Assembly: GCA_964445095.1 (NCBI GenBank)
Contig: CAYUJR010000002.1
Span: 5,176-69,175 of the forward strand
Origin: an uncultured Gammaproteobacteria bacterium
GTDB lineage: Bacteria; Patescibacteriota; Microgenomatia; Levybacterales; JACOYD01
Length of the DNA: 64,000 nucleotides
Reading direction: 5' to 3'
Part shown: positions 8,573-56,308 of the stretch, piece by piece
Layout of the letters: each line of letters opens with the position of its first letter
Position numbering within the stretch: the first letter of the stretch is position 1
The notes under the pieces: generated by a model
The model's database searches: none
Told to the model about the DNA's origin: nothing
What the model saw: the letters and a program-made list of their open reading frames with translations, nothing else
Translations under genes and position numbers: made by a program

Positions 8573-9709
8573 ATGTGGCAGAGCCTCAAAAACATCTATC
8601 ACTTGGCCATGGCGGTGGTGGCTAATTTGTGGTTTGGTTTTCCCTCAAAAAAGCTGACGGTCATTGGCGTGACCGGCACTGACGGTAAGACGACTACTGT
8701 TAACCTCATTTACCATATCTTAAAAACCGCCGGAAAACAGGTTTCGATGATTTCTTCGGTGGGGGCGGTTATTAATAGCAAAAATTATGAGACAGGTTTT
8801 CATGTGACCACTCCCTCTTCCTGGAAACTGCAAAAGTTTATCAAGAAAGCAGAAGGTTATTTAGTTCTCGAAGTTACTTCGCACGCTCTTGACCAGTACC
8901 GTGTTTGGGGCATAGATTTTGCAATTGGGGTACTGACTAATGTTACCAATGAACATCTTGATTACCACAAAACCTGGGAACAATATGTGAAAGTCAAATC
9001 AAAGTTGTTAAAAAACGCCAAGATAGCAATTGTTAATAAAGATGACAACTCCTACGGAGTAATTTCCAATTTCCAATTTCCAATTTCCAATAAATTAATT
9101 ACTTATGGATTAAAAAACTTTTCTTTTAAGACAAAATTGATGGGGGAGTTTAATAAATATAATATTTTGGCGGCGGCGGCGGCGGCAAAGACTTTAGGAA
9201 TAAAAGATCAAGTGATAAAAAAAGCAATAGCCAGTTTCCAATTACCGATTGGCAGGATGGAAGTTGTTTATAACGGCGCGTTTATGGTTATTATTGACTT
9301 TGCTCATACTCCAAACGCCCTAGAGCAAGCTTTATCGACAGTGAAAAAAAATGTTAGTGGTCGGTTAATTCATATTTTTGGTAGTGCTGGAGAAAGAGAT
9401 TTTCAGAAACGGCCGGAAATGGGAAGAGTTTCTAGCAAATACGCAGACATTATTATTTTGACTGCGGAGGATCCACGTTCGGAATCGGTTGATAAGATTA
9501 TCGAAGAGATTGAATCAGGAATTAAAAAGTCAGGAGTTTTGAGGGTTCAAAACAGGCAGGAGGCGATTAATACTGCTATTAAAATGGCCAAAAAAGGAGA
9601 TGTGGTGTTACTTACCGGTAAAGGGCACGAACAGTCGATGAATTATGGTCGGGGGGAGGAGCCGTGGAGTGAACATGAAGCAGTTAAACAAGCACTTAAA
9701 AAAAGTTAA
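8573..9709 (+). CDS. murE: UDP-MurNAc-L-Ala-D-Glu:meso-DAP/L-Lys ligase MurE (short form)
   Basis: GVTGTDGKTTT P-loop and DFAHTPNALEQAL (MurE DNAAHTPDAL-like) motifs. TATAAT at 8559-8564 sits only 8 nt before ATG 8573; the true start could instead be M at 8609. Confidence 0.85.
   Translation: MWQSLKNIYHLAMAVVANLWFGFPSKKLTVIGVTGTDGKTTTVNLIYHILKTAGKQVSMISSVGAVINSKNYETGFHVTTPSSWKLQKFIKKAEGYLVLEVTSHALDQYRVWGIDFAIGVLTNVTNEHLDYHKTWEQYVKVKSKLLKNAKIAIVNKDDNSYGVISNFQFPISNKLITYGLKNFSFKTKLMGEFNKYNILAAAAAAKTLGIKDQVIKKAIASFQLPIGRMEVVYNGAFMVIIDFAHTPNALEQALSTVKKNVSGRLIHIFGSAGERDFQKRPEMGRVSSKYADIIILTAEDPRSESVDKIIEEIESGIKKSGVLRVQNRQEAINTAIKMAKKGDVVLLTGKGHEQSMNYGRGEEPWSEHEAVKQALKKS
9062..9089 (+). repeat. (ATTTCCA)x4 heptanucleotide array, in-frame in murE
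   Basis: Four perfect units. With flanking bases it forms a 30-nt insert encoding ISNFQFPISN. Confidence 0.9.
9169..9186 (+). repeat. (GGC)6 trinucleotide repeat in murE (poly-Ala)
   Basis: GGCGGCGGCGGCGGCGGC encoding AAAAAA. Confidence 0.9.
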
Positions 9710-11099: not shown

Positions 11100-11132
11100 C
11101 GCTAAAAATTGCCGATGCAATTTTGTCAAATC

Positions 11133-11153
11133 CTAAATTCTAATTTCTAAATC
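11133..11153 (+). repeat. Three heptamer units CTAAATT-CTAATTT-CTAAATC abutting the murB ATG
   Basis: Occupies the expected SD position. Same ATTTCYA family as the murE array. Confidence 0.8.
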
Positions 11154-12146
11154 ATGAACATTATGGATAAAAAACTACAAGAATTGGAGAAAAATTTAGG
11201 GGCGGGTAGAGTTCGTGTCGGTGAGGTGATGAGCGCACATACTACCTTTAAAATTGGCGGGCCGGCCCAATTTTATTTTGAAGCAAATACCATTGACGAT
11301 TTGGTAAATGCAGTCAAAACAGCCAATAAATTAGATCTACCTTTTTTTGTTTTTGGCGGAGGTTCAAACATTATAGTTTCCGACAATGGCATTAAAGGTC
11401 TGGTGATTAAAAATAACTGCCGAAAATTCACCGTCTCTAAAATGAGCGGAAGCGTAAGGGGTAAAAAAGTGGGAGTTGATAAGGCATTGGTAGCGGCAGA
11501 AAGCGGAGCGCTAATGAATCAATTGGTGCGTTTTACCATCGACCAGGGTTTACAGGGTTTGGAATATCAATTGGGATTGCCGGGAACAGTAGGTGGGGCA
11601 ATATATATGAATTCCAATTTCCCCAAAAAGGGAGCCTACGCGGGAGACTCCCTATATCAGGCTAAGCTCATAACTCGAGAGGGAGAAATAAAAGAAGTTA
11701 GTAATTCTTATTTCCAGTTTGGTTACGATAAGAGCATCTTGCAAGAAACAGGGGAGATAGTTTTATCAGTAGTTTTTCGTTTTAAACCGGCCGATAAAAA
11801 AATATTGTGGGAAAAGGGAATGGAGGCCTTAAATTATCGCAGCCTAACTCAACCTAAGGGAGCATCAGCCGGTTGCACCTTCAGAAATATTTCCGTAGTT
11901 GATGCGGTTAGAATTCCCACCCCGCAGCAAATTACTTCCGCCGGATACTTAGTTGATAAGGCTGGGTTAAAAGGAAAACGAATAGGTGACGCCATGATTT
12001 CTCCGCTTCATGCCAACTTTATTCTGAATTTTGGTCGAGCTCATGCTCAAGATGTGACGTCGCTAGTTAAGCTCGCCAAAGACGAGGTTTATAAAAAATT
12101 CGGCGTAAATTTACAATTGGAGGTTAAAACCGTCGGTTTTAGTTAG
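11154..12146 (+). CDS. murB: UDP-N-acetylenolpyruvoylglucosamine reductase MurB
   Basis: HTTFKIGGPAQFYFEANTIDDL and GGGSNII FAD-binding motifs. Three heptamer units (CTAAATT CTAATTT CTAAATC) abut the ATG. Confidence 0.9.
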   Translation: MNIMDKKLQELEKNLGAGRVRVGEVMSAHTTFKIGGPAQFYFEANTIDDLVNAVKTANKLDLPFFVFGGGSNIIVSDNGIKGLVIKNNCRKFTVSKMSGSVRGKKVGVDKALVAAESGALMNQLVRFTIDQGLQGLEYQLGLPGTVGGAIYMNSNFPKKGAYAGDSLYQAKLITREGEIKEVSNSYFQFGYDKSILQETGEIVLSVVFRFKPADKKILWEKGMEALNYRSLTQPKGASAGCTFRNISVVDAVRIPTPQQITSAGYLVDKAGLKGKRIGDAMISPLHANFILNFGRAHAQDVTSLVKLAKDEVYKKFGVNLQLEVKTVGFS

Positions 12147-13481: not shown

Positions 13482-14708
13482 ATGCAGGCAATTTTACTAG
13501 CAGCTGGCAGTTCCAGTCGTTTTTATCCTTTTAACGGGACGCATAAATCAATGGTTTATCTTTTGGGCAAGCCGATACTAGCTCACGCAATTGATGGACT
13601 AAGAAGTATTGGCATAAAAGAGCTTATTATTGTAGTAAGAGATGATGGAATAGTTAAAGATTATTTTGGCGATGGTAAAAAATTTGGAGTAGAAATTAAT
13701 TATGTTGTCATAAATCAACCCTTGGGAATGGGTGATGCCCTACTTCAAGCTAAAAAACACCTTAAGGGTGATTTTATTTTTTTAGGGGGAAACCATGTTA
13801 ATAGTAACATTTTAGTTAGTAAATTATTGACTAACAGAAAAAATACTGATGCGGTAGTATTAATTAACCAAAGATTAAATACTTGGGAATATGGAGTTGT
13901 TAAGCTGGTAGGGCAGCAGGTTAAGGGAGTGGTGGAGAAGCCCAAGAAAGGTCAAGAACCGTCAAAATTTTGTTTAGTCAGTATCTATTTATTACCTATT
14001 AATTTTTTGGCGGTTTTAGAAAAAACTAAAGTGCATCAGTATAATTTTGAAGAGGCTTTGGATGAGTTTACCAAGATAGCAAAAGTCGCGGCAGTGGAGA
14101 TTAAAGAGGAGATAGCCACCTTAAAATACCCTTGGGATTTATTAAACGTTAAGAACATGCTGCTAAAAAAGATGAAAGACTATCGGGGAAAAAATGTCAA
14201 AATTGCCAAAAGCGCGGAAATTATTGGCGAAGTTTCTATTAGTGATGGTGTAGTAATTATGGAAGGAGTGCGTATTAAAGGTCCTGCTTATTTGGGAAAA
14301 AATGTGACAGTTGGTAATAATGCCTTGTTGCGTGGTGGAGTTGACGTGGAAGAGGGGTCGGTAGTTGGTTCTTATATGGAAGTTAAAAATAGTCTGGTAA
14401 TGAAAAATAGTACTACCCACTCCGGTTTTATTGGAGATTCAGTAGTTGGAGAAGCTTGCAAAATTGGCGCCCAATTTTGCACCGCTAATGTCAGAATTGA
14501 CAGAAAAACTATTCATGATAGTGGTCGTAAATTCTTAGGCGTAATTATGGGAAATAATGTTCATATCGGTATTAAATCATCCACCATGCCGGGAGTTATT
14601 ATTGGTAATAATGCTACCATTGGCCCCTCTACCACAGTTTTGCAAAACGTGTCTGATGATTCCCGTTACTACACCAAATTTGAAAAAATAGTGGAGGAGA
14701 AAAATTGA
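13482..14708 (+). CDS. GlmU-like bifunctional sugar-1-phosphate nucleotidyltransferase / left-handed beta-helix acyltransferase (archaeal-type)
   Basis: N-terminus LLAAGSSSRFYPF...K (NTP-transferase G-loop). C-terminal hexapeptide repeats. Lies between murA and glmS. Confidence 0.7.
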   Translation: MQAILLAAGSSSRFYPFNGTHKSMVYLLGKPILAHAIDGLRSIGIKELIIVVRDDGIVKDYFGDGKKFGVEINYVVINQPLGMGDALLQAKKHLKGDFIFLGGNHVNSNILVSKLLTNRKNTDAVVLINQRLNTWEYGVVKLVGQQVKGVVEKPKKGQEPSKFCLVSIYLLPINFLAVLEKTKVHQYNFEEALDEFTKIAKVAAVEIKEEIATLKYPWDLLNVKNMLLKKMKDYRGKNVKIAKSAEIIGEVSISDGVVIMEGVRIKGPAYLGKNVTVGNNALLRGGVDVEEGSVVGSYMEVKNSLVMKNSTTHSGFIGDSVVGEACKIGAQFCTANVRIDRKTIHDSGRKFLGVIMGNNVHIGIKSSTMPGVIIGNNATIGPSTTVLQNVSDDSRYYTKFEKIVEEKN

Positions 14709-15386: not shown

Positions 15387-17153
15387 ATGTGTGGAATATT
15401 CGGTTACGTAGGTAAAAAAAATGCCTCCGATGTTGTAATAGCCGGTTTAAAAAGACTGGAATACAGGGGTTATGATTCGTGGGGTATTGCCGTAGTAGCC
15501 GATGAAATAAAACTCAATAAAAAAGTGGGAGCGATCGGAGATATGCTTCCGTCATCCAACTTCCAACTTCCAGCCTCCAACATCGGTATTGGCCACACCC
15601 GCTGGGCTACTCATGGGGGAATCACCGAAACTAATGCTCACCCACATTTTTCCACTGATAAATCTTTTGCCCTAGCCCAAAATGGAATTGTGGAGAATTA
15701 TCAAGTATTAAAAGATGAACTTAAGGAAAGGGGTTACAAATTTTTTACAGAAACAGATACGGAGGTAATTGTCCGGTTAATAGAAGATAAATTGAAGCTA
15801 ATTAAAGACCTGCAGGAAGCTGTCAGAAAAGCTTTTTTGGAGCTTGAAGGTAGAAACACAATTATTATTTTGACTAAGGATGGTCAAATTATTTCTGCCA
15901 GAAATGGTTCTCCCTTGGTGGTTGGAGTTAATCAAAAAGAAGTATTTTTTTCATCCGATACTTTATCTTTTGCGCCATTCGTCAAAAAAGTAATAGTGAT
16001 AGATAATGGCCAGATGGTTTATTATAACGGTAAACTTAATGTAGTAGATATTAAGTCCGGCAAAAGTCTCCAATACCATCTTGAAAAGATCGATTTTAAA
16101 AACAGTAAGGTTGATAAAGAAGGCTACGACCATTTTATGTTAAAAGAAATTCATGAAAGTCCTTATGTGATTGGTCAAGTAATCAATCAAGCTCGTGGCT
16201 TAGACGCTCTTGGTAGAGCTATAAAGAAAGCTAAAACTGTCTACTGCGTCGCTATTGGCACAGCTGGTGGTGCTGCTTCCCAAATAGCCTTCTATTTAAG
16301 GGTTCATTCTGGGATTAAAGCCTTGAGTTTAACGGCAGCTAATGCTCTTGATTATTACCCTTTGTTTACCACAGACGATTTGATCATTAACCCCTCCCAA
16401 TCCGGAGAATCAGCTGATGTTTTGGAGGTTTTGGAAAAAGCTAAAGAAAAGGGAGTAAAAATCGCTTCTTATGTTAATATGCCGGGTTCAACTACGACCA
16501 GAATGTCAGATTTTAAGTTCATGTCTAATGCCGGACCGGAAATTTGCGTGATGTCCACAAAAGTTTATGCTTCTCAAATAGCCTGGGGGTATTTGCTGTC
16601 AAAAGTGGTAAGCAGAAAGCAGGAAGATGGACAGACAAACCTTAAGTCTTTATCTTTGGAGGTGGAAAAGTATTTAAATACCGAAAATAATCACGATTTG
16701 ATAAAAAACCTGGCAAAGGAGCTGGTTAAAAAACAGCACATTTTTCTTCTGGGTAAATACCAAAACTTAAATATAGCTCGCGAAGGTATGATTAAAATTA
16801 TCGAGGGTTCATACATTCATGCTCATGCTATGCCGGCAGGAGACTTAAAGCATTACGCCATTACTCTAATGGAAAAAGGGGTGCCAGTGATTGTAGTAGT
16901 TTCTGAAGATATAGCAAGAGATGATGTGATAAACGCCGTAAATGAGGTCAGAGCCAGAGGGGCTTGGGTAATAGGCATTGCGCCCAAATCACACCCGAGT
17001 TTTGATGTCCATCTACCAGTGCCTAATACAGGGGAAACATCAGCCATCATGAATATAATCCCTTTACAGCTTTTAGCTTATTATATGGCAGTAGAACTGG
17101 GTCACAATGTAGACAAACCCAGAAATATTGCTAAGAGTGTAACAGTCAAATGA
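15387..17153 (+). CDS. glmS: Glutamine--fructose-6-phosphate aminotransferase GlmS
   Basis: MCGIFGYVG Ntn-amidotransferase start with two SIS domains; 588 aa. Three heptamer units precede the ATG. An internal (TCCAACT)-type 4-unit array lies at 15555-15582. Confidence 0.92.
   Translation: MCGIFGYVGKKNASDVVIAGLKRLEYRGYDSWGIAVVADEIKLNKKVGAIGDMLPSSNFQLPASNIGIGHTRWATHGGITETNAHPHFSTDKSFALAQNGIVENYQVLKDELKERGYKFFTETDTEVIVRLIEDKLKLIKDLQEAVRKAFLELEGRNTIIILTKDGQIISARNGSPLVVGVNQKEVFFSSDTLSFAPFVKKVIVIDNGQMVYYNGKLNVVDIKSGKSLQYHLEKIDFKNSKVDKEGYDHFMLKEIHESPYVIGQVINQARGLDALGRAIKKAKTVYCVAIGTAGGAASQIAFYLRVHSGIKALSLTAANALDYYPLFTTDDLIINPSQSGESADVLEVLEKAKEKGVKIASYVNMPGSTTTRMSDFKFMSNAGPEICVMSTKVYASQIAWGYLLSKVVSRKQEDGQTNLKSLSLEVEKYLNTENNHDLIKNLAKELVKKQHIFLLGKYQNLNIAREGMIKIIEGSYIHAHAMPAGDLKHYAITLMEKGVPVIVVVSEDIARDDVINAVNEVRARGAWVIGIAPKSHPSFDVHLPVPNTGETSAIMNIIPLQLLAYYMAVELGHNVDKPRNIAKSVTVK
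15555..15582 (+). repeat. TCCAACT-TCCAACT-TCCAGCC-TCCAACA heptamer array, in-frame in glmS
   Basis: Encodes SSNFQLPASN, close to the murE insert peptide ISNFQFPISN. Confidence 0.9.
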
Positions 17154-37003: not shown

Positions 37004-37024
37004 TTTCAAATTTTAAATTTCAAT
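37004..37024 (+). repeat. Three heptamer units TTTCAAA-TTTTAAA-TTTCAAT abutting the rpmA ATG
   Basis: Same placement as at murB and glmS. Confidence 0.75.
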
Positions 37025-37276
37025 ATGGCACATACAAAAGCACAAGCAGCCACCAAGGGCAATAGAGATTCAATCTCTAAAAGATTGGGCGTCAAACTTT
37101 TTGGCGGACAAAAGACTTTTCCTGGTAATATCATCATCAGACAACGGGGAAGCAAAGTTCATCCCGGAGAGGGCGTAAGGATGGGGCGGGATTTTACCAT
37201 TTTTGCCGTCAAGGAAGGGCAGATTAATTTTAAAACACATCGTGGACGTGCATTCGTGGAGGTCATAAATGGATAA
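37025..37276 (+). CDS. rpmA: 50S ribosomal protein L27
   Basis: [16 protein letters not shown]...GGQ start, canonical for L27. Three heptamer units (TTTCAAA TTTTAAA TTTCAAT) abut the ATG. Confidence 0.95.
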
Positions 37277-39946: not shown

Positions 39947-40936
39947 ATGAAGATTGTTTTTCTCTGCCGCTTTTCTGCTTATAGAGTTGGTGGTGTGGAA
40001 ACGCATGTAAAAAAAGTTGCCGCCGGGTTAGAAAATAAGGGCCATACAGTTAATATTATCAGTAACATCAAATATCCGAAGATAAAATTTTTAGGGTTAC
40101 TGGTCATTTGGTGGCAGTTATTAAAAACATTTAAAGTTATTAAAACGGCTGATGTCGTTCATGTTCATGACGTTTTTATCTGGTATCTGCCGCTTCGTTT
40201 TCTATTCCTCAAAAAGCCTGTTTTTATTACTTTCCATGGCTATGAGACCAAATTTCCTCCTTCAAGATGGTCAATATTAATTAGAAAAATTAGCGAGAAA
40301 TTATCTTGGGGAAATATTTGCGTTGGTGATTATATTAAAAAATGGTATGGGACAAAGCCGACTTACACCACCTATGGTGGCGTAAGAATACTACCAATAA
40401 ATACCAATACTACAAATACTACCAATAAAAATAATAAACTCAAAATTTTATTTATTGGAAGATTAGAGAAGGATACGGGAGTTAATATTTATTTACAAGT
40501 CTTAAAGATTCTTAAGAAGAAAAGAATTAGGTTTGAGTTTGAAGCCTGTGGAGATGGACAGTTGCGGAGTGAGGTAGAAAAAATTGGCCAAGTCCATGGT
40601 TTTGTCAAAGATATATCTTTCTATTTAGCGAGGTCGGACCTGGTTTTTAGCTCGTCTTATCTTTCTATTTTAGAAGCAATGGTGAATAAAAAGCTGGTCT
40701 TTGCAGTTTTTAATAATCCGCTTAAAGAAGATTATCTCAAAATGACTTCTTTTGCTCAATGGATAATTATTGAAAATTCGTCGATTAAGTTGGTCAAAAA
40801 AATGCAATACTACTTAAGTCATAAAATTACCCGAGAAAAATTAACAAACAGGGCTTATCAGTGGGTCAAAAGTCAAACATGGGAGGAGGTCGTAAAAGTT
40901 TATGAAAGTTTCCATAGTGGTTACGGTCTTAAATGA
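39947..40936 (+). CDS. GT-B glycosyltransferase, family 4/group 1
   Basis: GT4-type N-terminus (RVGGVETHV) and a C-terminal EX7E-like region. Contains an Asn/Thr-rich low-complexity insert from short tandem repeats at 40387-40435. Confidence 0.7.
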   Translation: MKIVFLCRFSAYRVGGVETHVKKVAAGLENKGHTVNIISNIKYPKIKFLGLLVIWWQLLKTFKVIKTADVVHVHDVFIWYLPLRFLFLKKPVFITFHGYETKFPPSRWSILIRKISEKLSWGNICVGDYIKKWYGTKPTYTTYGGVRILPINTNTTNTTNKNNKLKILFIGRLEKDTGVNIYLQVLKILKKKRIRFEFEACGDGQLRSEVEKIGQVHGFVKDISFYLARSDLVFSSSYLSILEAMVNKKLVFAVFNNPLKEDYLKMTSFAQWIIIENSSIKLVKKMQYYLSHKITREKLTNRAYQWVKSQTWEEVVKVYESFHSGYGLK

Positions 40937-41834
40937 AGAAGAGACAATAGGTGAGCTATTATCGTCAATACTTCAACAATCTGCGTTGCCAGATGAGGTG
41001 ATTGTTGTTGATGGAGGTTCAACTGACCTGACGGTCAGTAATATCAAATATCAAATATCAAATATCAAATATTTCAAAAGCAGATTAAGACCTTTTATTA
41101 AAAAAAGTAATAGGGCAATAGGTAGAAATTACGGGATTTCCAAGGCAAAAAATGAGATTGTCGCTCTCACCGACGCGGGATGCATTCTTGATAAAAATTG
41201 GTTAAAAAATATTACAACTCCATTCGAGAGTACAGAGGTCGATGTCGTTGCCGGATTTTATCAAGGATTACCGAAGAGTATTTTTGAAAAGTGTCTGGTG
41301 CCTTATGCTCTGGTTATGCCCGATAAGGTTAACCCCAAAACATTTCTGCCCGCTTCACGCTCGATGGCGCTGCGACGATCTATTTGGCAAAGGGCTGGTG
41401 GTTTTCCGGAAGAATTTTCAGATAATGAAGATTATGTATTTGCTCATAAATTAAAGAAAATGCATGCCAAAACTGTTTTTCAGAAAAAAGCGGTGGTTTT
41501 TTGGATGCCCAGAAAAAACTTGATAGAAGCTTTTATGATGTTTTTCAAGTTTGCTAAAGGGGATATGGAGGCCCAAATTGTCAGACCAAAGGTAGTATTA
41601 TTATTTCTGCGCTATATAATCGGACTGACTTTGGTTATACTGAGTATAGAAAGAATTTGGTTACCATCATATTTTTTAATACTAGTCACGGTTTATTTAT
41701 TTTGGGCAATTGGGAAAAATTATCGATATGTGGCTGACTGGCGAGCAATTTTTATCTTGCCACTTTTACAGCTAACAGCAGATACATCTGTTTTAACAGG
41801 AAGTATTTATGGGATATACAAAAGAGGCAATTAA
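40902..41834 (+). CDS. GT-A family 2 glycosyltransferase with C-terminal TM segments
   Basis: VSIVVTVLNEE...DEVIVVDGGSTD (GT2 DxD region). Contains an (ATATCAA)4 array at 41041-41075. Confidence 0.75.
   Translation: MKVSIVVTVLNEEETIGELLSSILQQSALPDEVIVVDGGSTDLTVSNIKYQISNIKYFKSRLRPFIKKSNRAIGRNYGISKAKNEIVALTDAGCILDKNWLKNITTPFESTEVDVVAGFYQGLPKSIFEKCLVPYALVMPDKVNPKTFLPASRSMALRRSIWQRAGGFPEEFSDNEDYVFAHKLKKMHAKTVFQKKAVVFWMPRKNLIEAFMMFFKFAKGDMEAQIVRPKVVLLFLRYIIGLTLVILSIERIWLPSYFLILVTVYLFWAIGKNYRYVADWRAIFILPLLQLTADTSVLTGSIYGIYKRGN
41041..41075 (+). repeat. (ATATCAA)x4 plus a degenerate fifth unit, in-frame in a GT2 gene
   Basis: Encodes SNIKYQISNIKYF. Confidence 0.9.
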
Positions 41835-48847: not shown

Positions 48848-49537
48848 TTATTTACTTAAAATTTCAGAATGCATTACTCTAAAGGCCTGTGAGCTTCCGT
48901 CTTTAACAAATATTTCGGGTATCACTCCTAAGGGGGAAAGAGAAAGACTCTGCTTATGATAATCTACTTTAGTAGGTATACCATGGAGCGGAACACTAAA
49001 AGACCCACCAGCTTCTGATTCTAAAGCTGCCGTTACCCCTCCATTAGTAGCTGGTACGTTTATATATGGTTTGCCATCAATTAAAATATTTTCTAGATTT
49101 CTCTTGTCGTTCAAATACACTGCCGTAAAATTGCCGTCCAAACCTGATCGATAAATCAACCACGCTTGCCCTTTTTGATGATCAATTGCTTCCCAGGGGT
49201 TATTAACGATCTCTACTAAAGTACCACTGCCGCCTTTGTATCCCACAGCGGGACCAGTTTGAATATCATCTGAATATGCTGGGGAAGCAAACCATCTTAA
49301 TCTTGTAGCTCCTTTATTAATTGTCACAACTCCTCTAACTATTTCTAATGGTTGTCCAGGTTTTATCCTTTCTCTCATTAGTTCTTGAAATCTAATTGCT
49401 TCTGGGGGTAATTGTTCTTCCTGACGATATGCAAGACATGATGTCACTAGCAACGGAGAAACTACAACTAAACTACCTCCTAGTGAGAGTTTTTGTAAAA
49501 ATTTTCTTCGTGTGCTTCCGCGTTCCAACACCTGCAT
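48848..49537 (-). CDS. Hypothetical exported protein with twin-arginine signal peptide
   Basis: STRRKFLQKLSLGG matches the S/T-R-R-x-F-L-K Tat consensus. Confidence 0.55.
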   Translation of the reverse strand: MQVLERGSTRRKFLQKLSLGGSLVVVSPLLVTSCLAYRQEEQLPPEAIRFQELMRERIKPGQPLEIVRGVVTINKGATRLRWFASPAYSDDIQTGPAVGYKGGSGTLVEIVNNPWEAIDHQKGQAWLIYRSGLDGNFTAVYLNDKRNLENILIDGKPYINVPATNGGVTAALESEAGGSFSVPLHGIPTKVDYHKQSLSLSPLGVIPEIFVKDGSSQAFRVMHSEILSK

Positions 49538-49595
49538 AAGTAGAAGTATTATATCACACTATATCACATCTTGTCAAATAAAATGGTTATTGGCC

Positions 49596-50780
49596 TCATT
49601 TTAACTCAAAAGGTACTCTCACCATAGAATGAGGATTATCCCATATTCCTCGAGAGTAGACCAAAACTCCAGTTCTATCCGTAATTTGATCTGTAGGTTT
49701 ATTTAAAGACCAAAGGCTCGGATTACTGGCCCATAACTGACCTCTTTTATGAGGATATTGCCCTTGAGGAAATTTTAAGATAAGCTTAGCCTCGTCCCAG
49801 GTTAAACCATCGTTTGAAGTAGTTACGCAAAATCCAACATGCGTTTCAAAAACAGCCAGGTATTTACCTAAATAGGTATTATAGCTTACACTAGGGAGTG
49901 CGGCATACCCACTCTCCGCTATATCGGCTGGTATAGGAATAACTGGTGATACAGTAGTGGGGGAAACTTCAACTCCTTTTTGAAAACCATTTTTTGTATA
50001 ATGTTCGAAGGCTCCAACATTATCCCCTTTTACCTCTGTTCTAGAAAGGTGAATTTGATATTCTCGCCCTTCATGAGAAGGCCAATAAATATAATAAACA
50101 TAGACAAATCGCTTATCCCCTTCCTCTTTAATAATCGCACAAGGTTGACCTACTCCAGTAACATTTTTTCCAGGTTGTAATGCATCAGCTGCTTTTAAAG
50201 CAACTCCTTTATCCAACCAATTTTTTCCTCCATCAACTGATTCTAAAATACCAATAGTACTCGTGAAGTTACGATAATCTAAAGAACCATCTCTATTTGC
50301 CCATTGTTCATTGTGGGTTATCCCAAAAAGATGATTAGGATTTTCCTTGTTTAACTGAAGGATGCTTGTAATTGCAGTATATCCATTTCTATATTCCCCC
50401 CCCCTATCAGGGCCAACCACAGGTATGGCTTGTCCTTGCTGGTTACGTTCTCTTGGTATAAATAGACTTCCTTTATCTTCTAGCATGGCGAACGAAGCTG
50501 CATTTCCAGAAACATAATATTCCCGCCTTCCATCGGGAAAAGTTATATAAGGAATATGGCCGTCGGGAGTCCAGTTGATACCATATTTTGACAGCTGAAT
50601 TGGTTCCTCTTTACCAAGCATCATCAAATCATTTTCCGGAGTTTCAAATCCTCCTCTGGTTGACCGTTCATTAACAAGCAGTGCGCCTCGTCCTAGAGCA
50701 ACAGCTCCCAATCCAATCGCTCCCCATTTAATTGCAGTTCGTCGAGTTATTTGAAGTCGTTTAGGTGTATCTTCTGCCAT
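49596..50780 (-). CDS. Tat-signal exported protein, beta-propeller/glycosidase-like (function unknown)
   Basis: ITRRTAIKWGAIGLGAVALG Tat-type leader. Rich in W/Y/G, as in propeller folds. Confidence 0.45.
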   Translation of the reverse strand: MAEDTPKRLQITRRTAIKWGAIGLGAVALGRGALLVNERSTRGGFETPENDLMMLGKEEPIQLSKYGINWTPDGHIPYITFPDGRREYYVSGNAASFAMLEDKGSLFIPRERNQQGQAIPVVGPDRGGEYRNGYTAITSILQLNKENPNHLFGITHNEQWANRDGSLDYRNFTSTIGILESVDGGKNWLDKGVALKAADALQPGKNVTGVGQPCAIIKEEGDKRFVYVYYIYWPSHEGREYQIHLSRTEVKGDNVGAFEHYTKNGFQKGVEVSPTTVSPVIPIPADIAESGYAALPSVSYNTYLGKYLAVFETHVGFCVTTSNDGLTWDEAKLILKFPQGQYPHKRGQLWASNPSLWSLNKPTDQITDRTGVLVYSRGIWDNPHSMVRVPFELK

Positions 50781-53700
50781 ATTTTATTAAATACATTATA
50801 GCCGATATTATGAGCAATAGAAAGCCTAGATACTCGAGGTATTGGGGAAGATAAAGAATGACGAGGCTGGAAGCTGGAGGCTGGAAGCTGGAATTATTCA
50901 GCACCCATCCATTAGCCCAGTTGTTAACTAGGACGTGGTTTTTAATTTCTCTACCAAACACCATTGGTAGTATTTGACATTTGACATTTGACATTTGACA
51001 TTGATACGCTTTCCATCCTGTGTCATAAGACTGGGAAAGAACAAGGACGGGATTATTAATTGTTAAATTGTTAAATTGCTCAATTGTTATGGAATAAAGA
51101 CTGGGGTTGGGGTGATTGACCTCGAGCTCGGTTAATCTGACAGGAAACTGGTTAGTGCTTGATTTTTTCAAAACCAGACCGGTTAGGAATTTATAGGGGA
51201 TGGGGTTGACAGTAATTTTACCCAGTTCATTAGTGGATTTTTCTTTACCGATTGAGACATTGTCAAAATGGAGGACGTATCCTACCCCGTCTTTTTCCAT
51301 GGGAGGCTGGATAAAATAGCTAGACGCTAAATGCTTGCTGCTAGACGCTGGTAAATAAGTTTCAATGTCGGCACGTCTCGAGTTGGGGTTTTCCAGCCAA
51401 AAAAGAATAGGGCGACCAGAGATGTTTTTAGTTTCCGCTGTAATAAGGTAGGCCATGTCATGCGTCAAATTGGGTAGATTAAAAGCGGTACAGTTACTGT
51501 TATTTATTAACGTCAATCGCAAGAAGCCGCGGACAACATTGTCGCAATTGACAGTAGTCGGTTCAATCTCGGCACTGAAGTAGCCGCCGGCTTTGGGAAC
51601 TTTGACCTCGATATTTTTGCCGTCAAAAAAGACATCAAGCGGCACGGTTTTTGTTTGAGACAAGTCATTGGGGTCAACCCAGGTTAAGATTTGACTACTT
51701 GGTGGTGGCACTTCTAAAACATAGTTGTCGCTACCGGCAGGTAGAGTTTTACTAAAGGCAAAATAATCGCCCCTGTCTTCTACCGTAAATTCTAAATCTT
51801 GTTGGCTCCTGCCCGTAAATAAACTCCTAAATGGATAGTAAAAACTGGAAGCTGGAGATTGGATGCTAGAAGCTAGATAATAACCATTATCATTAAAGGC
51901 GCGGTCGTAATTATTCCATTTGTAAATGGGGCCGGTAGTAGCGAGATTTTCTGCCAAAAAGACAAAGTTGTTAACCGGCGCTTCAAGATTTACTCGATAA
52001 ACTTTAATTTTGCCTGCTTGCGCAGGCGAGCCGAATTGTTGGGTTAGGGTGACTTTATTTGAATTTTTAAGCGTCTCTTCCAATTCATCCAGATAAAGCG
52101 CCTTGGAAGAGGGAGGATTAATAATATTTTCATCAACCAGCAGCCACCTGATTTGATATTTTTCAAGGACATTTTCAAGTAACGCAGGATTTTTAGAATA
52201 AACAGCATAAGAAGCTTCCCAATAATAATTCTCATTATATGGAGACCACCGGTCAAATTCCCGATCGAGCAACGGTTGTTTTAAACCAAACCACAAAAAT
52301 CCTGCACCTTCATACTGCCAATCATAGTAAGCCCAGCCCCAAAAAGTATGGACGGGAAATTCGGCAATTCTGCCTGTTGTTTCCTGCTTGTTTAACCAGT
52401 TAAACATAGCAAAATACTCCTTTGGTATTTGTACTTTCATGCTATGACTGATTAAGTTTCCTTTAAATGCTGGCCACATATAATAAACAAGGGCAATTAA
52501 TATAGTTAAAGCTTGTAGTAAATAAAGTATTCGTTCTTTTTTTACCCTTTTAATTAATAGTCCAGTTAGCCAATTCAAGGCAACTGCAAAATAAACGGTG
52601 TAAGCAAAGAGTAGTAAAATAGAAAATTTAGTAAAGGGAAAGCGGAGAGCCTCTCTAAAAAAGGGGACCTCATTTTGTAAAAAGGCAAAAATTTCTCTAA
52701 AAAGCGGCAGATCATTAGCAATAAATAAAAACGAGACAATAAAAACAGGTAAAATTGCTAAACCATACTTTTCTTGTCTGCGAAATACTATAGCTATTCC
52801 TCTTAAAACTAAAGTAAAAATACCGTAAGCAATAAAATTTGCAATCGGGCTATTTAGATGTGGAGTCCACTCATCAAATAAACTAATAGATTCTTGTTTT
52901 TTGTCATCATATTCTCCCCAGTCAAATAAAAAGTTTTTCAAAATTGCCGTGTCTTTGATGGTGCCAAATTGTCTGCCAGTTAAAAAAGCTTTTTCCGAGA
53001 ATTGAGTATGAATTTTTGAGTCGACTACATCCTTGCCGTGACTTGCAACAAAATAAATATTAGGCAATAACCAGAAGCTATTTAATACGAGAGTGGTCAG
53101 TAGAATTAACAAAGCTCGCCGAATAGTCTCCTTGAAAGAGAAAAAGGCTAAAGTACTAATATATAATAGTAAACCCAAAAAATAGGCATAAAAAAGCGTG
53201 GCGGTGTGGGCCATAGAGGTTGACAGAATAGTTATTAATGAGAAAAATATCAGATTTCTGCTTGTTCCATTCTCTAAATATTTACTGGTAAAAAGAAATA
53301 GCCAGGGAAGGGTGGCAAAGTGGGTGGCAAACATCTCCAGCGGTACATAATAATGTTGAAGGGTAGCTAGATTTAAAAGATATAGCAGAGCTCCACTAAA
53401 AGCGGCTGTTTGGCCAGCTATGCGGGGCAAGTTTTTTAAAATAACCCGTTCTAGAAAAAAGTAAGTCCCCAGCGTGCCAGCAATTAGAGTCAAGAAAAAA
53501 TAGCCGTAGCGCAAAAATGAGTCGGGAAGAATAAGCGAAGATAAATAATAAATAAACATTCGGGGAAGCTCCGAAGCATGGGCTTGCGAAGCAACAGCCC
53601 CCAGTCCTTGATGTTCTTGCCAAACACCAAAGAAAATTCGTTTAAAATAAAGTCCAAAGTCAAACTCCGGATGTAGCGTATCCCAACCGGAAAGATAAGT

Positions 53701-53793
53701 GCCAGGCGAATAATTTACCCAACAAATAATAACAGTAAGAATAAATAATGCTAAAGGAAAAATATTTCTTTTAAATATTGGAGATATTCGCAT
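50761..53793 (-). CDS. Large (1010 aa) polytopic membrane protein with huge extracytoplasmic domain; GT-C-like (YfhO/AftD-like) candidate
   Basis: About 12 N-terminal TM helices, then roughly 550 aa soluble, then a C-terminal TM. Carries three heptamer-array inserts (50866-50893, 50973-51000, 51846-51877). Confidence 0.5.
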   Translation of the reverse strand: MRISPIFKRNIFPLALFILTVIICWVNYSPGTYLSGWDTLHPEFDFGLYFKRIFFGVWQEHQGLGAVASQAHASELPRMFIYYLSSLILPDSFLRYGYFFLTLIAGTLGTYFFLERVILKNLPRIAGQTAAFSGALLYLLNLATLQHYYVPLEMFATHFATLPWLFLFTSKYLENGTSRNLIFFSLITILSTSMAHTATLFYAYFLGLLLYISTLAFFSFKETIRRALLILLTTLVLNSFWLLPNIYFVASHGKDVVDSKIHTQFSEKAFLTGRQFGTIKDTAILKNFLFDWGEYDDKKQESISLFDEWTPHLNSPIANFIAYGIFTLVLRGIAIVFRRQEKYGLAILPVFIVSFLFIANDLPLFREIFAFLQNEVPFFREALRFPFTKFSILLLFAYTVYFAVALNWLTGLLIKRVKKERILYLLQALTILIALVYYMWPAFKGNLISHSMKVQIPKEYFAMFNWLNKQETTGRIAEFPVHTFWGWAYYDWQYEGAGFLWFGLKQPLLDREFDRWSPYNENYYWEASYAVYSKNPALLENVLEKYQIRWLLVDENIINPPSSKALYLDELEETLKNSNKVTLTQQFGSPAQAGKIKVYRVNLEAPVNNFVFLAENLATTGPIYKWNNYDRAFNDNGYYLASSIQSPASSFYYPFRSLFTGRSQQDLEFTVEDRGDYFAFSKTLPAGSDNYVLEVPPPSSQILTWVDPNDLSQTKTVPLDVFFDGKNIEVKVPKAGGYFSAEIEPTTVNCDNVVRGFLRLTLINNSNCTAFNLPNLTHDMAYLITAETKNISGRPILFWLENPNSRRADIETYLPASSSKHLASSYFIQPPMEKDGVGYVLHFDNVSIGKEKSTNELGKITVNPIPYKFLTGLVLKKSSTNQFPVRLTELEVNHPNPSLYSITIEQFNNLTINNPVLVLSQSYDTGWKAYQCQMSNVKCQILPMVFGREIKNHVLVNNWANGWVLNNSSFQPPASSLVILYLPQYLEYLGFLLLIISAIMYLIKYGRRYT
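50866..50893. repeat. (GCTGGAR)x4 heptamer array inside the 1010-aa membrane-protein gene
   Basis: The minus-strand reading TTCCAGC TTCCAGC CTCCAGC TTCCAGC encodes SSFQPPASSL. Same family as the glmS array. Confidence 0.9.
50973..51000. repeat. (TTTGACA)x4 heptamer array inside the same gene
   Basis: The minus-strand reading (TGTCAAA)4 encodes QCQMSNVKCQ. It is one transition away from the GT2 ATATCAA unit. Confidence 0.9.
51846..51877. repeat. Degenerate heptamer array (CTGGAAG CTGGAGA TTGGATG CTAGAAG) inside the same gene
   Basis: The minus strand encodes ...SSIQSPASSF... Confidence 0.6.
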
Positions 53794-53801
53794 ATTGTAA
53801 G

Positions 53802-54716
53802 TTAAGTTTTTATTGCACTGGGTGTACTAGGTATTATTGGATTTTGGAATGGAGTTGTTAAAATTTTAGTGTATATAAAGTAATAAAGATTATTAACAGT
53901 CTGCGGTGGGAAAAATTCCGATAACGCTTCAGCGAAAAAATTATAACCGTGAAGTGCGTATTTTATTATATCAAAAACAAATCGACTATCACGATATCTT
54001 TCTAAGTCTGAAGGCGTCAGGTTATCGCCGCTTCTTCCTCTGCTAGGACGACCTAAAGTTGACGACATATCTGAGTAGAACTTACATTTTTCTTGTACTT
54101 CAGGCTCCAGTCTATCACAACCGCCGCTTTCTAGAGCTCGTTTATTAAAAATACTGTATTTTTCTTCAATCCTTTGATATAACTCGCCCTCCGGATTTCT
54201 TAACTCTGAAAGTTTTTTACCTAATATTCTCTCAACGTTTAGTACCCATGGCGTCCAACCTGCAGGGCTAAGACCATCAGGATGATTTCTTGGTATCCAG
54301 AGATCCACCAACTTTTCAAGAAATGTTTCATGAAATCGAAATTGTGGATAGTTTTCAGGTAAAAATTGGTCTGGGAATATTTGTATAGCATACTCGTGTG
54401 GAGATAAATATTCACCTCTATTTTCCCTAATTATTTTTAAACGCAAACCCTTAGATTCGTTTCTGTAAAAGTGACGGGGAATTCTGTCTAAAGATGATTC
54501 CAATAGATCGAGCTCCTGTTTATGCCAGTAGCCTGCACGAACATCTGCAGAAAAATTAATATCAAATCTTATTGCAATCTCACGTTCTAGTTGTTGCACT
54601 GTTTGAAGCTCTGTAGGTTCTCTAAAGACATGAAAATTCTCTACGGCTTTTCCTACAGCTAAACCTGCCAAACTTGCTGATGCTCCAATAATTAACTCTC
54701 TTCGTGTGAATGGCAT
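53802..54716 (-). CDS. Hypothetical exported protein with Tat-type signal
   Basis: FTRRELIIGASASLAGLAVG leader. Confidence 0.5.
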   Translation of the reverse strand: MPFTRRELIIGASASLAGLAVGKAVENFHVFREPTELQTVQQLEREIAIRFDINFSADVRAGYWHKQELDLLESSLDRIPRHFYRNESKGLRLKIIRENRGEYLSPHEYAIQIFPDQFLPENYPQFRFHETFLEKLVDLWIPRNHPDGLSPAGWTPWVLNVERILGKKLSELRNPEGELYQRIEEKYSIFNKRALESGGCDRLEPEVQEKCKFYSDMSSTLGRPSRGRSGDNLTPSDLERYRDSRFVFDIIKYALHGYNFFAEALSEFFPPQTVNNLYYFIYTKILTTPFQNPIIPSTPSAIKT

Positions 54717-54733
54717 AGACGAAGTATAGCATA

Positions 54734-56308
54734 CTATAAGTCTTTTATCAAGGTGATTTCATAGATGGATAAATTATCTCCATCAGGTAAGGAGTATTGT
54801 TTAATTAGCTTTACTTTCTCAGGGTAAGAATGAATTAAATATTCTTTTAATTGTTTTAGGATAGATAAATGACGTAGCACACCTTCTGGGCCAAAGCTTT
54901 CATTTGGAATCAAAACGTAATCAAAATAAGCTAAATATGCCTTCATTTTTGATGTTTCAGTAAACGGGTTTAAATTGTAAGGAGCCCTAAATTTTATGGA
55001 AGTATTTCTCTGTTTTCTCTGATGTAGTTCTAAATTCATTGCATTAAGCTCACTTTTATCGACTAAAACTAAAACTTTTATGAGCTCATTCGAATTTATT
55101 GAGCTTAAGTCAGCAATAATTTGCTTGTGGGGCCAGACCGTTGTTTCATGTTTCGGGGCCAAATATTGACTGGTGTTTTTACCCAAGTTAATATAGTCAA
55201 TCCAACCGACTATAGGAAGCTTAACTGCTCTTTGATAGTCAACTATTTTGGGATTGAAAGGAAAGCCAAAAGACAGACTAAAGAAATATAGAAAAAAATA
55301 TAGGCCAACGAATAGACTTATCAAAATACCCCAAAATTTTATAGCATTAATTATTTTTAATAACAGAAAGCCAATAGCCATTGAGGCAAAAGGTAATATA
55401 GGTAAAATATAGCGCGGGTCCTTATTGGGAATAAAGGTAAAAATGAGATAAATAGAGAATATAACTACGGTAATTAAAATACCCTTTTCTCTTTTGGTAT
55501 AAATAAGCACCGGAATAGCTACCAAAAGTAGGATTATTCCTAGCCAGGTTAAATGAAAGTTAACTAAAATCGACAAATAATAAGTAAAATTTGGTATACT
55601 TAATAGCGCCTGAGGATCAACTGCTTCAGCTGTAAAACTGACTTTTGCCCGGTTTAATATATTAGTAAAATTAATAAGATACCAGGGTAAACTGATTAAG
55701 GCAACTGTGCCTAACGATATGAACAAGTTTTTTAGATGAATTTTTTTAAGCGAAATTATAATAGGAATTAATAAATAAACTATTGCTACCCATTTTGTTA
55801 GCAGAGCAAAGCTTAAGAAAATTGTTGCTAATAATGAAGTTCTTAGATTCGCAAATTTTTTTGATTTTTCCAGGAAATATAAACTACCTAAAATCAAGGC
55901 TATCAGCGGTATTTCTAGTAAAAAATTCCGGGACTGGCTATAGACAACAGGTAAAAAAGAGAAAAAAAGAGCTGAAAATATGGCTATTTTCCCATCATTA
56001 AAAACTTCTTTGGTGTAAAGATATAAGAAACTTATTGCCATAAGGAAAAACCCAGTTACCACTAAAGGCCCAATTAATAGCAGTGGTCCAGTAAAAATCA
56101 TTATTAATGCAACTATAAGATGTGCTAATGGTGGATAATAATCCGAAATCTGGAAAAAATTAACTTGACCTTGACCTTTAAAGAAATCTACGAGGTCAAA
56201 AGAGATTAGAGTATGGCCTGCTTGATCCCAAGCTAAAGGTGATTTATCAAGTAAGATCCAAATTAAATTAGCCAGAAAATGAAAAGCAAGAAGTAGAAAC
56301 AACGGCAT
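54734..56308 (-). CDS. GT-C fold glycosyltransferase (ArnT/PMT family-39/83-like)
   Basis: Polytopic, with an N-terminal loop ...DKSPLAWDQAGH... resembling the GT-C catalytic loop. 524 aa. Confidence 0.55.
   Translation of the reverse strand: MPLFLLLAFHFLANLIWILLDKSPLAWDQAGHTLISFDLVDFFKGQGQVNFFQISDYYPPLAHLIVALIMIFTGPLLLIGPLVVTGFFLMAISFLYLYTKEVFNDGKIAIFSALFFSFLPVVYSQSRNFLLEIPLIALILGSLYFLEKSKKFANLRTSLLATIFLSFALLTKWVAIVYLLIPIIISLKKIHLKNLFISLGTVALISLPWYLINFTNILNRAKVSFTAEAVDPQALLSIPNFTYYLSILVNFHLTWLGIILLLVAIPVLIYTKREKGILITVVIFSIYLIFTFIPNKDPRYILPILPFASMAIGFLLLKIINAIKFWGILISLFVGLYFFLYFFSLSFGFPFNPKIVDYQRAVKLPIVGWIDYINLGKNTSQYLAPKHETTVWPHKQIIADLSSINSNELIKVLVLVDKSELNAMNLELHQRKQRNTSIKFRAPYNLNPFTETSKMKAYLAYFDYVLIPNESFGPEGVLRHLSILKQLKEYLIHSYPEKVKLIKQYSLPDGDNLSIYEITLIKDL

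Follow-up and report, generated by a model that had tools for sequence, protein, structure and literature searches.

Heptanucleotide arrays in outer-domain loops of an AftD-like membrane protein and in cytoplasmic enzymes of Microgenomates bacteria

The DNA analysed in this work is a stretch of 64,000 nucleotides (hereafter the window) from contig CAYUJR010000002.1 of assembly GCA_964445095.1 (positions 5,176 to 69,175, forward strand), whose minus strand carries, at 50761..53793, a gene for a large membrane protein with a predicted GT-C fold (hereafter the GT-C protein). Within this open reading frame (ORF) lie short tandem arrays of units of seven nucleotides (nt), a length that is not a multiple of three. 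The question raised by the locus is whether the concentration of such arrays in a surface protein reflects variability selected in a host- or phage-facing molecule, one of the two readings (tolerated or selected) hinted at in the original prediction, or a process that acts on many genes. The evidence presented below points to the second answer: arrays of the same kind were found in cytoplasmic enzymes of the window, and a lineage-wide slippage bias, filtered by selection and tolerated in flexible loops, is the probable source of all of them.

An AftD-like protein with arrays in its outer domain

The ORF is intact and encodes an AftD-like membrane protein of 1010 amino acids (aa), an identification drawn from its homologues, a structural model and a fold search. 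The AlphaFold model, built from 92 homologues, reached a predicted local distance difference test score (pLDDT) of 92.1 and a predicted template modelling score (pTM) of 0.92. When the PDB was searched with this model using Foldseek, the best match was mycobacterial AftD (6w98_A; E 1.3e-18, TM-score 0.53, query-normalised), followed by STT3, PglB, AftA and EmbA/B/C. Identity to AftD 6w98 is 12% at the sequence level, and profile methods gave little: Pfam family PF11847 (GT-C_AftD) scored 14.7 bits (E 0.0075) against the protein, below the 26-bit cutoff, and was matched at E <= 0.01 by only 1 of 25 family members, while a profile search of the PDB reached AftD at E 0.43 only. Because the confident model matches AftD first and then STT3, PglB, AftA and the Emb proteins, the protein is, by its predicted structure, a GT-C-fold protein, and the fold search was decisive where sequence profiles had failed.

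In the model, the N-terminal part (aa 1-440; 52474..53793, minus strand) forms a multi-helix transmembrane (TM) GT-C core of about 11 TM helices, recognised from the model helices, the alternating K/R-rich loops and the AftD, STT3 and PglB matches. The motif GWDTLHPE (aa 36-43; 53665..53688, minus strand) was located by alignments and model in the first extracytoplasmic loop, directly after TM1; alignment A1 shows no variation at its acidic residues D38 and E43, and in alignment A2 both are at least 90% conserved. In GT-C enzymes, acidic residues sit in the loop after TM1, and by analogy with this paradigm D38 and E43 would have a catalytic role. Short K/R-rich loops were counted at aa 1-10, 338-343, 411-421 and 1004-1010, and further ones (aa 119-123 and 219-223) were read from the sequence and the model helices. 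Because the N terminus, the tail and the alternating loops are K/R-rich and GWDTLHPE follows TM1, aa 441-977 are placed outside the membrane; the predicted N-in/C-in topology, with this segment extracytoplasmic, is supported by the positive-inside rule and agrees with that of AftD. The outer segment belongs to a beta-rich soluble domain (aa 441-980; 50854..52473, minus strand), assigned by DSSP on the model, which houses all four arrays of the gene. It is followed by a C-terminal TM helix (aa 983-1009; 50767..50847, minus strand; hydropathy peak at 985-1003) and by the K/R-rich cytoplasmic tail KYGRRYT.

Homologues of the protein number 910 and come from Microgenomates/candidate phyla radiation (CPR) lineages (Blackburn-, Davies-, Levy-, Gottesman-, Shapiro-, Roizman- and Woesebacteria). 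The source is therefore itself assigned to Microgenomates (CPR), and the gene is read as coding for a putative AftD-like glycosyltransferase. In the scanned metagenome and genome collections nothing was more than 64% identical to it, and its clusters at 90% identity hold one member. Many metagenome-assembled genome records that carry this Microgenomates-type protein ('binchicken' or SRP-derived; among the loci used here, L049 and L001) are titled 'uncultured Gammaproteobacteria' or 'Pseudomonadales', labels that look wrong.

The arrays were delimited by Tandem Repeats Finder (TRF) and by translation. Loop B (50972..51002, minus strand) carries 4.4 perfect copies (31 nt, 100% matches) of the coding-strand unit AATGTCA (ATTTGAC on the plus strand), read as QCQMSNVKCQI at aa 931-941. 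Loop C (50863..50893, minus strand) carries 4.4 copies of plus-strand GCTGGAR (coding TTCCAGC/TTCCAGC-C), reported by TRF either as period 7 at 90% matches or as 2.1 copies of period 14 at 100%, and read as NSSFQPPASSL at aa 967-977. The array of loop A (51845..51873, minus strand; ASSIQSPASS, aa 641-650) is degenerate (CTGGAAG CTGGAGA TTGGATG CTAGAAG) and falls below a TRF score of at least 30; it was recognised by a shared 13-mer, CTGGAAGCTGGAG, which occurs in the window only at 50867, 50881 (one mismatch) and 51845, with 0.04 occurrences expected. Because this 13-mer is common to loops A and C and absent elsewhere in the window, the loop A array is taken as a decayed copy of the loop C unit TTCCAGC. 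A further array, in loop B0 (51058..51089, minus strand), has period 8 and consists of 4.0 copies of plus-strand AATTGTTA at 83% matches (ITIEQFNNLTI, aa 902-912).

The original prediction had been right about the 1010-aa reading frame, the GT-C-like fold, the extracytoplasmic position of the arrays (as far as the topology check, which rests on prediction, can carry it) and the peptides QCQMSNVKCQ, SSFQPPASSL and SSIQSPASSF. Its count of three arrays stands for the two clean ones (50972 and 50863) and for a third (51845) that is real and decayed, and has to be extended by the period-8 array, which it had missed. All four arrays lie in coil of the outer domain, where local pLDDT dips to 77-86: the loop C array is placed between strands 960-964 and 976-981 (81-86), and values are 84 for the loop B array and 77 for the loop A array. 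In loop A, gain or loss of one unit would truncate the protein at aa 644-664, and in loop B at aa 949-952; in loop C it would lead to a stop at 986 or to read-through.

Period-7 arrays in other genes, other loci and orthologous loops

Perfect arrays of at least three copies in the window have period 7 only, and three such arrays were observed against 0.0 in 100 dinucleotide shuffles of the window. Three of the arrays outside the GT-C gene lie in frame in plus-strand ORFs for cytoplasmic enzymes. A MurE-type Mur ligase (ORF 8573-9709) contains 4.4 perfect copies of AATTTCC at 9061-9091, translated as ISNFQFPISN; GlmS (ORF 15387-17153) contains 3.9 copies of TCCAACT at 15555-15581, translated as SNFQLPASN and placed just before the conserved GIGHTRWATHG; and a GT2 glycosyltransferase (ORF 40902-41834) contains 4.7 perfect copies of AATATCA at 41040-41072, translated as NIKYQISNIKY. 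When written for the coding strand, the units form two small families, TTCCARY (MurE, GlmS and GT-C loops A and C) and AATRTCA (GT2 and GT-C loop B), the GT2 unit AATATCA being one mismatch away from the GT-C unit AATGTCA. Since in-frame arrays of related units occur also in cytoplasmic MurE, GlmS and GT2, the arrays are not special to the GT-C protein, and their presence in a surface protein loses its force as a sign of selected host- or phage-facing variability.

Three weaker or different repeats were seen elsewhere in the window. An intergenic array of 3.6 copies of AAATTCT (11128-11152) stands directly before the start of a MurB-like ORF at 11154, and one of 2.9 copies of TTTCAAA (37004-37023), likewise weak and intergenic, precedes a small ORF at 37035, read as L27. 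At 40383-40444, within ORF 39947-40936 (plus strand), an A-rich repeat has overlapping periods of 9, 19 and 28 (AATACTACC-like) and is unlike the heptamer arrays.

For a lineage-wide census, 127 loci around homologues of the GT-C gene were collected (1.85 Mb, including some duplicate contigs; 118 non-redundant loci). In the 127 loci, TRF called 189 period-7 arrays, as compared with 47, 58 and 47 for periods 6, 8 and 9, and the excess was sharper for perfect arrays (37 at period 7 versus 3, 2 and 3). Across 1.7 Mb of Microgenomates loci, period 7 was three to four times as frequent as periods 6, 8 and 9. The density of period-7 arrays ranged from 40 to 135 per Mb among Microgenomates groups, as compared with 13.7 per Mb for WWE3-like loci. 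Strictly called arrays lay in long open frames in 63 of 109 cases; coding arrays peak at 31-32 nt (23 of 63), whereas non-coding ones spread over 23-45 nt with 5 of 46 at 31-32 nt (Fisher p = 0.0035). Coding-strand units have a G content of 10%. Among 13 units that are stop-free in both orientations, nine are C-rich and none G-rich on the coding strand (p = 0.004), and the C-rich orientation gives peptides of S, T, N, Q, P, F and L. A G-quadruplex role for the arrays was considered and rejected because the units are G-poor.

Some loci of the census hold intergenic composite elements, several per contig (L023 1121-1310 and 5928-6257; L033 41-314, 1838-2132 and 3734-3887; L026 5159-5256), in which a hairpin-like core (…GTATTATGCATGAAAATGCATTATCCCCACAATACATAAT…) lies between clusters of differing heptamer arrays. 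In L001, the same pair of arrays (3.9 copies of TAACTTG and 5.4 of TGTTACT) is present twice, at 13798-13881 and, 755 nt further on, at 14553-14636; this points to a duplicated segment or a repeated element.

Within the GT-C gene, arrays recur at the same places across the family. Of 159 period-7 arrays in the non-redundant loci, this gene, with 20.5% of the bases, accounts for 47 (p = 0.0045). Of these, 42 fall at aa 568-999, in clusters at about 600-670, 800-875, 898-940 and 956-973 that match the four array loops of the window gene. The closest homologue (P0002 of locus L001, 64% identity) has perfect arrays of unrelated units, namely ACCTACA in loop A, five copies of AACCTAC in loop B0 and AACTATC in loop C. 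Loop lengths in the family cluster at 9, 15-16, 22-24, 36-37 and 44 aa for loop A, at 15-16, 22-23 and 29-30 aa for loop B, and at 14-15, 19 and 22 aa for loop C, and each of the four loops shows higher amino-acid autocorrelation at lag 7 (0.089-0.145) than at other lags (0.03-0.08).

Close relatives differ by whole units. Between L023 and L026 (93% nucleotide identity) the sole large indel in the gene is exactly 7 aa (21 nt) and lies in loop C, where the sequence is wholly rewritten between nearly identical flanks (L023 5616-5714, L026 4396-4473); between contigs L023 and L033 (96.5% identical) the intergenic array of one composite element differs by exactly 7 nt, one unit. In the L031/L036 pair (98.7% identical) the intragenic arrays are unchanged. 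The orthologue in L040 is frame-broken twice (1900-2050), exactly at loops B and C, in degenerate heptamer-like sequence with stops; it may represent an OFF variant, a pseudogene or a fault of assembly. With loops this variable, with length steps of about 7 aa and with the exact 7-aa difference in loop C between relatives, the earlier suggestion that the variability is tolerated was borne out.

Similar hot spots were found in the orthologues of the cytoplasmic enzymes. The array loop of MurE, compared in 82 orthologues, measures 41-43 aa when no array is present, 48-50 aa (+7, e.g. ISNFKFLISK) or 54-57 aa (+14), and the MurE of the window equals array-less P0243 plus exactly 7 aa (NFQFPIS). 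Without the insertion, its DNA would read AATTTCCAAT, that is, 1.4 copies with AAT microhomology, and three added units would give 31 nt. In GlmS, peptides with 7-aa periodicity occupy the loop in about 35-40 of 84 orthologues (a third to nearly half, depending on the strictness of scoring) and belong to the families LPxSNFQLPxSN, TLNSELxTLNS and LDSxLxTLDS, while array-less relatives show no periodicity at the array site. The DNA at this site has a homogenised, species-specific unit, CTTCCAA in the window, CCAATTT in L128 (4.7 perfect copies) and CTACCAW in L131. On a neighbour-joining tree of the 84 sequences, Fitch parsimony needed no fewer than 20 gains or losses to account for the GlmS array, a number that, given a crude tree and classifier, is a hint of patchiness only. 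A tblastn search with MurE, GlmS and GT2 against the fetched GT-C loci gave no match. That MurE and GlmS share the hot-spot behaviour, together with the modest size of the GT-C enrichment, argues further against selected surface variability as the reason for the arrays.

Possible origins of the arrays

The arrays probably reflect a lineage-wide bias towards 7-nt slippage that is filtered by selection and tolerated in flexible loops. Under this explanation a mutational bias of the lineage would duplicate 7-nt units in tandem, presumably through replication slippage, and each array would likely be seeded by about 1.4 copies, one unit with 3-4 nt of microhomology. Four filters would act within genes: three units would be gained at once (21 nt, 7 aa), giving the typical array of 4.4 copies and 31-32 nt; the unit would be stop-free in all three frames read; the 7-aa-periodic peptide would be uncharged and polar (S, T, N, Q, P, F, L); and the loop receiving it would be structurally permissive. 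Arrays would recur in the four outer-domain loops of the GT-C protein because these are permissive sites, and in the family they would have been repeatedly born, homogenised, decayed and replaced. From these patterns we infer that slippage is the mechanism and that the arrays are selectively neutral.

Several observations weigh against so simple a scheme. The description of the GT-C arrays as inserts holds in that the loops of the window protein exceed the minimal lengths of the family, but not in the form of clean 7-aa blocks: they measure 13, 18, 25 and 19 aa against a base of about 9, 15, 16 and 15 aa, an excess of 3-9 aa. In GlmS, presence of the array goes with an extra 2-3 aa only and not 7, which the simple model leaves unexplained. 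Passing from about 1.4 to 4.4 copies in an essential gene needs a three-unit event or a viable frameshifted intermediate, so that single-step slippage is insufficient. Related units are far commoner within a genome (10 of 39 pairs) than between genomes (88 of 1852; permutation p ~0.0002), which a random seed model does not predict and to which base composition or codon usage could contribute. Finally, the enrichment of arrays in the GT-C gene leaves some room for positive selection on the variability of its outer-domain loops.

Part of these difficulties would vanish if Microgenomates had an active, sequence-biased 'heptamer-writing' process, in place of passive slippage, that lays down or overwrites tracts of about 30 nt, made of about four genome-preferred heptamers, at permissive sites in many genes, whether by a directed, copy-and-paste route or as a dispersed DNA- or RNA-level element. 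Such a process would account for the genome-specific units and the sharing of units within genomes, as seen in the window for TTCCAAT, TTCCAAC and TTCCAGC (twice) in three genes and for AATATCA and AATGTCA in two; for the use of one unit at two loops of the same gene in the window and in L001, and nearly so in L017; for the homogenisation within species; for the replacement of the GlmS loop with little net change in length; and for the jump in copy number in essential genes, which lacks a viable intermediate. It would resemble the fourfold GGACCGG elements of Geobacter metallireducens, the fourfold GGGAATC arrays of Xanthomonas and Nostoc, or the TAACTGA repeats of Beggiatoaceae and cyanobacteria; a preference for four units and intragenic copies have also been reported for known dispersed heptamer families (PMC2700814, PMC4692102). 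We nevertheless regard it as unlikely, since units are diverse, with dozens of heptamers across loci; the mode of about 4.4 copies is confined to coding arrays, non-coding ones being broad as a reading-frame filter would predict; in MurE local sequence has been cleanly inserted, and the array-less form of the peptide contains the seed AATTTCCAAT; no enzyme or template linked to the arrays was identified; and the sharing test carried no control for base composition or codon usage. A contingency locus, in which heptamer tracts slip by one unit, switch the glycosyltransferase or its C-terminal anchor ON or OFF and so vary the surface towards hosts or phages, is quite improbable. It has in its favour a non-triplet unit inside the ORF of an envelope glycosyltransferase, the classical target class, the truncations expected for loops A and B and the stop or read-through expected for loop C, the one-unit difference in the intergenic array of near-identical contigs and the frame breaks of the L040 orthologue. 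Yet the arrays have only about four copies and, with one of them decayed and another imperfect, perfection is not maintained; their position is close to the 3' and not the 5' end of the gene; loop lengths in the family shift in in-frame 7-aa quanta; intragenic arrays are the same in the 98.7%-identical pair L031 and L036; a break at the array loops affects only one orthologue in about 118, and there an assembly error is possible; and equivalent arrays sit in essential cytoplasmic MurE and GlmS, whose OFF switching would probably kill the cell.

The DNA periodicity would be incidental if selection acted on the protein and favoured a functional peptide in the outer domain, such as an S/T/P-rich linker or an O-glycosylation site (SSFQPPASS, SSIQSPASS). 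Two GT-C loops do carry nearly the same S/P-rich peptide, a PMT-family GT-C enzyme is encoded among the neighbours, and the orientation of units on the coding strand is biased towards polar, uncharged peptides; the repeats, however, are perfect in DNA with synonymous positions included, cytoplasmic MurE and GlmS contain the same peptides, the loop B peptide QCQMSNVKCQ is not S/P-rich, and the same loops of homologues hold unrelated peptides or, in close relatives, have lost the peptide, all of which makes this origin highly improbable. An assembly artefact, by collapse of longer repeats to about k-mer length or by chimeric junctions, could be suspected from the 31-33 nt of several arrays, a length near a common k-mer size, but is scarcely credible: collapse is rejected because the 31-32-nt mode recurs in many assemblies whose contig names (k141_, k127_, k139_, NODE_, scaffold_) point to different assemblers and to k = 119-141, and all ORFs are intact, decayed arrays exist and orthologous loops show 7-aa length classes.

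If a 7-nt slippage bias combined with a reading-frame filter is the source, it would make and erase loop segments of seven residues at hot spots that recur, essential enzymes included, and would be a simple, general route of loop evolution in a large uncultured lineage. Its restriction by lineage, high in Microgenomates and low in WWE3-like loci, would point to a property of the replication or repair machinery. Heptamer writing, if true, would instead mean that CPR bacteria possess a new, built-in means of generating diversity in protein loops. For practical purposes, non-triplet repeats in CPR surface genes should not be called contingency loci without a genome-wide baseline, array-bearing loops will mislead alignments and dN/dS scans, and the arrays could act as strain markers.

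Gene neighbourhood and comparison with known systems

The GT-C gene lies in a run of envelope-related genes on the minus strand (48848-56308). Two genes upstream of it is a second GT-C gene, of the PMT_2 family (54734-56308, 524 aa); in L001 the PMT gene directly precedes the GT-C orthologue, the PMT/AftD-like pair being conserved there, and this gene pairing suggests a role in envelope glycans. Three proteins of the run that flank the GT-C gene have, by eye, N termini like those of twin-arginine (Tat) substrates (RRKFLQKL..., TRRTAIKWG..., FTRRELIIG...), and one protein of the run gave a weak DUF4185 match. The 3' end of the GT-C ORF overlaps the annotated ATG of the downstream ORF (49596-50780) by 20 nt (50761-50780), and the downstream gene may in truth begin further inside its ORF. 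At about 44.9 kb genes turn from the plus to the minus strand, convergently, and cumulative GC skew ceases to rise at about 47 kb; this part of the window (~44.9-47 kb) may be a replication terminus. The array units are C-rich on the coding strand, opposite to the local G-rich skew.

In its architecture, the GT-C protein resembles AftD (6w98) in its GT-C core, its large extracytoplasmic beta-rich domain and its C-terminal membrane anchor, and differs from it in length (about 1010 versus about 1400 aa), in scoring below the Pfam threshold and in belonging to an organism without mycolyl-arabinogalactan. As repeats, the arrays recall contingency loci in that a non-triplet repeat lies in the ORF of a surface-modifying glycosyltransferase and a change of one unit shifts the frame. 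Haemophilus, Neisseria and Campylobacter have contingency loci with long and perfect tracts that usually stand close to the 5' end and whose polymorphism consists of single-unit differences; the GT-C arrays of the window are short (about 4.4 copies) and partly imperfect (one array mismatched and one decayed), stand near the 3' end and have counterparts in essential cytoplasmic genes, and the changes seen in the family are in-frame three-unit steps.

Tandem repeats within ORFs of Borg elements reportedly have unit lengths divisible by 3, whereas the 7-nt unit seen here makes the frame cycle and insertions come in quanta of 21 nt. Borg repeats create new disordered regions in proteins, and the two systems are alike in that recent, perfect repeats within ORFs add polar low-complexity loops or linkers and evolve fast (PMC9879509).

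Among heptamer repeats proper, long simple sequence repeats (SSRs) of heptanucleotides are over-represented in prokaryotes, and polymerase slippage was proposed as their origin (Mrazek, Guo and Shah 2007, as reported in PMC4679880 and PMC4692102). As far as that survey is represented in these two papers, it agrees with our arrays in that 7-nt tandem arrays far outnumber those of neighbouring unit lengths and in that units differ between loci; within the same bounds, our arrays are set apart by their occurrence in CPR/Microgenomates, by the more than half that lie in frame in ORFs, by three-unit (7-aa) steps, and by recurrence at the same loops of orthologous enzymes with homogenisation within species. 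The SSR excess and the slippage proposal are therefore already known, while 7-aa quanta, loop hot spots in essential enzymes and within-species homogenisation are apparently unreported; literature searches on heptamers or SSRs in CPR, Patescibacteria and Microgenomates returned no relevant report, and Lin and Kussell (2012) do not mention heptanucleotides.

The GGGAATC/GGGGAYT arrays of Xanthomonas and Nostoc are G-rich, form G-quadruplexes, comprise one family per genome and are mostly intergenic and rarer in coding sequence; with ours they share the heptamer unit, a preference for about four units and variation in length and sequence between close relatives, whereas our arrays have a G-poor coding strand on which no G-quadruplex is possible and use many units (PMC4692102). 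In Geobacter metallireducens, four-copy GGACCGG arrays form a single GC-rich family of 49 copies, found also within genes and annotated as putative regulatory RNA elements, in contrast to the many unit families and only partial within-genome sharing seen here (PMC2700814). The TAACTGA repeats of Beggiatoaceae, cyanobacteria and Bacteroidetes have one dominant unit and lie mostly upstream of start codons, where translational regulation was proposed (PMC4679880). By the measure of a dominant unit, the window holds two small families (four TTCCARY arrays and two AATRTCA arrays), and many different units occur across loci. The likeness to the TAACTGA repeats lies in heptamer arrays of 2-6 copies, in intergenic clusters of differing arrays (here in L023, L033 and L014) and in the reading of a heptamer in three frames, which yields a peptide with 7-aa periodicity (PMC4679880).

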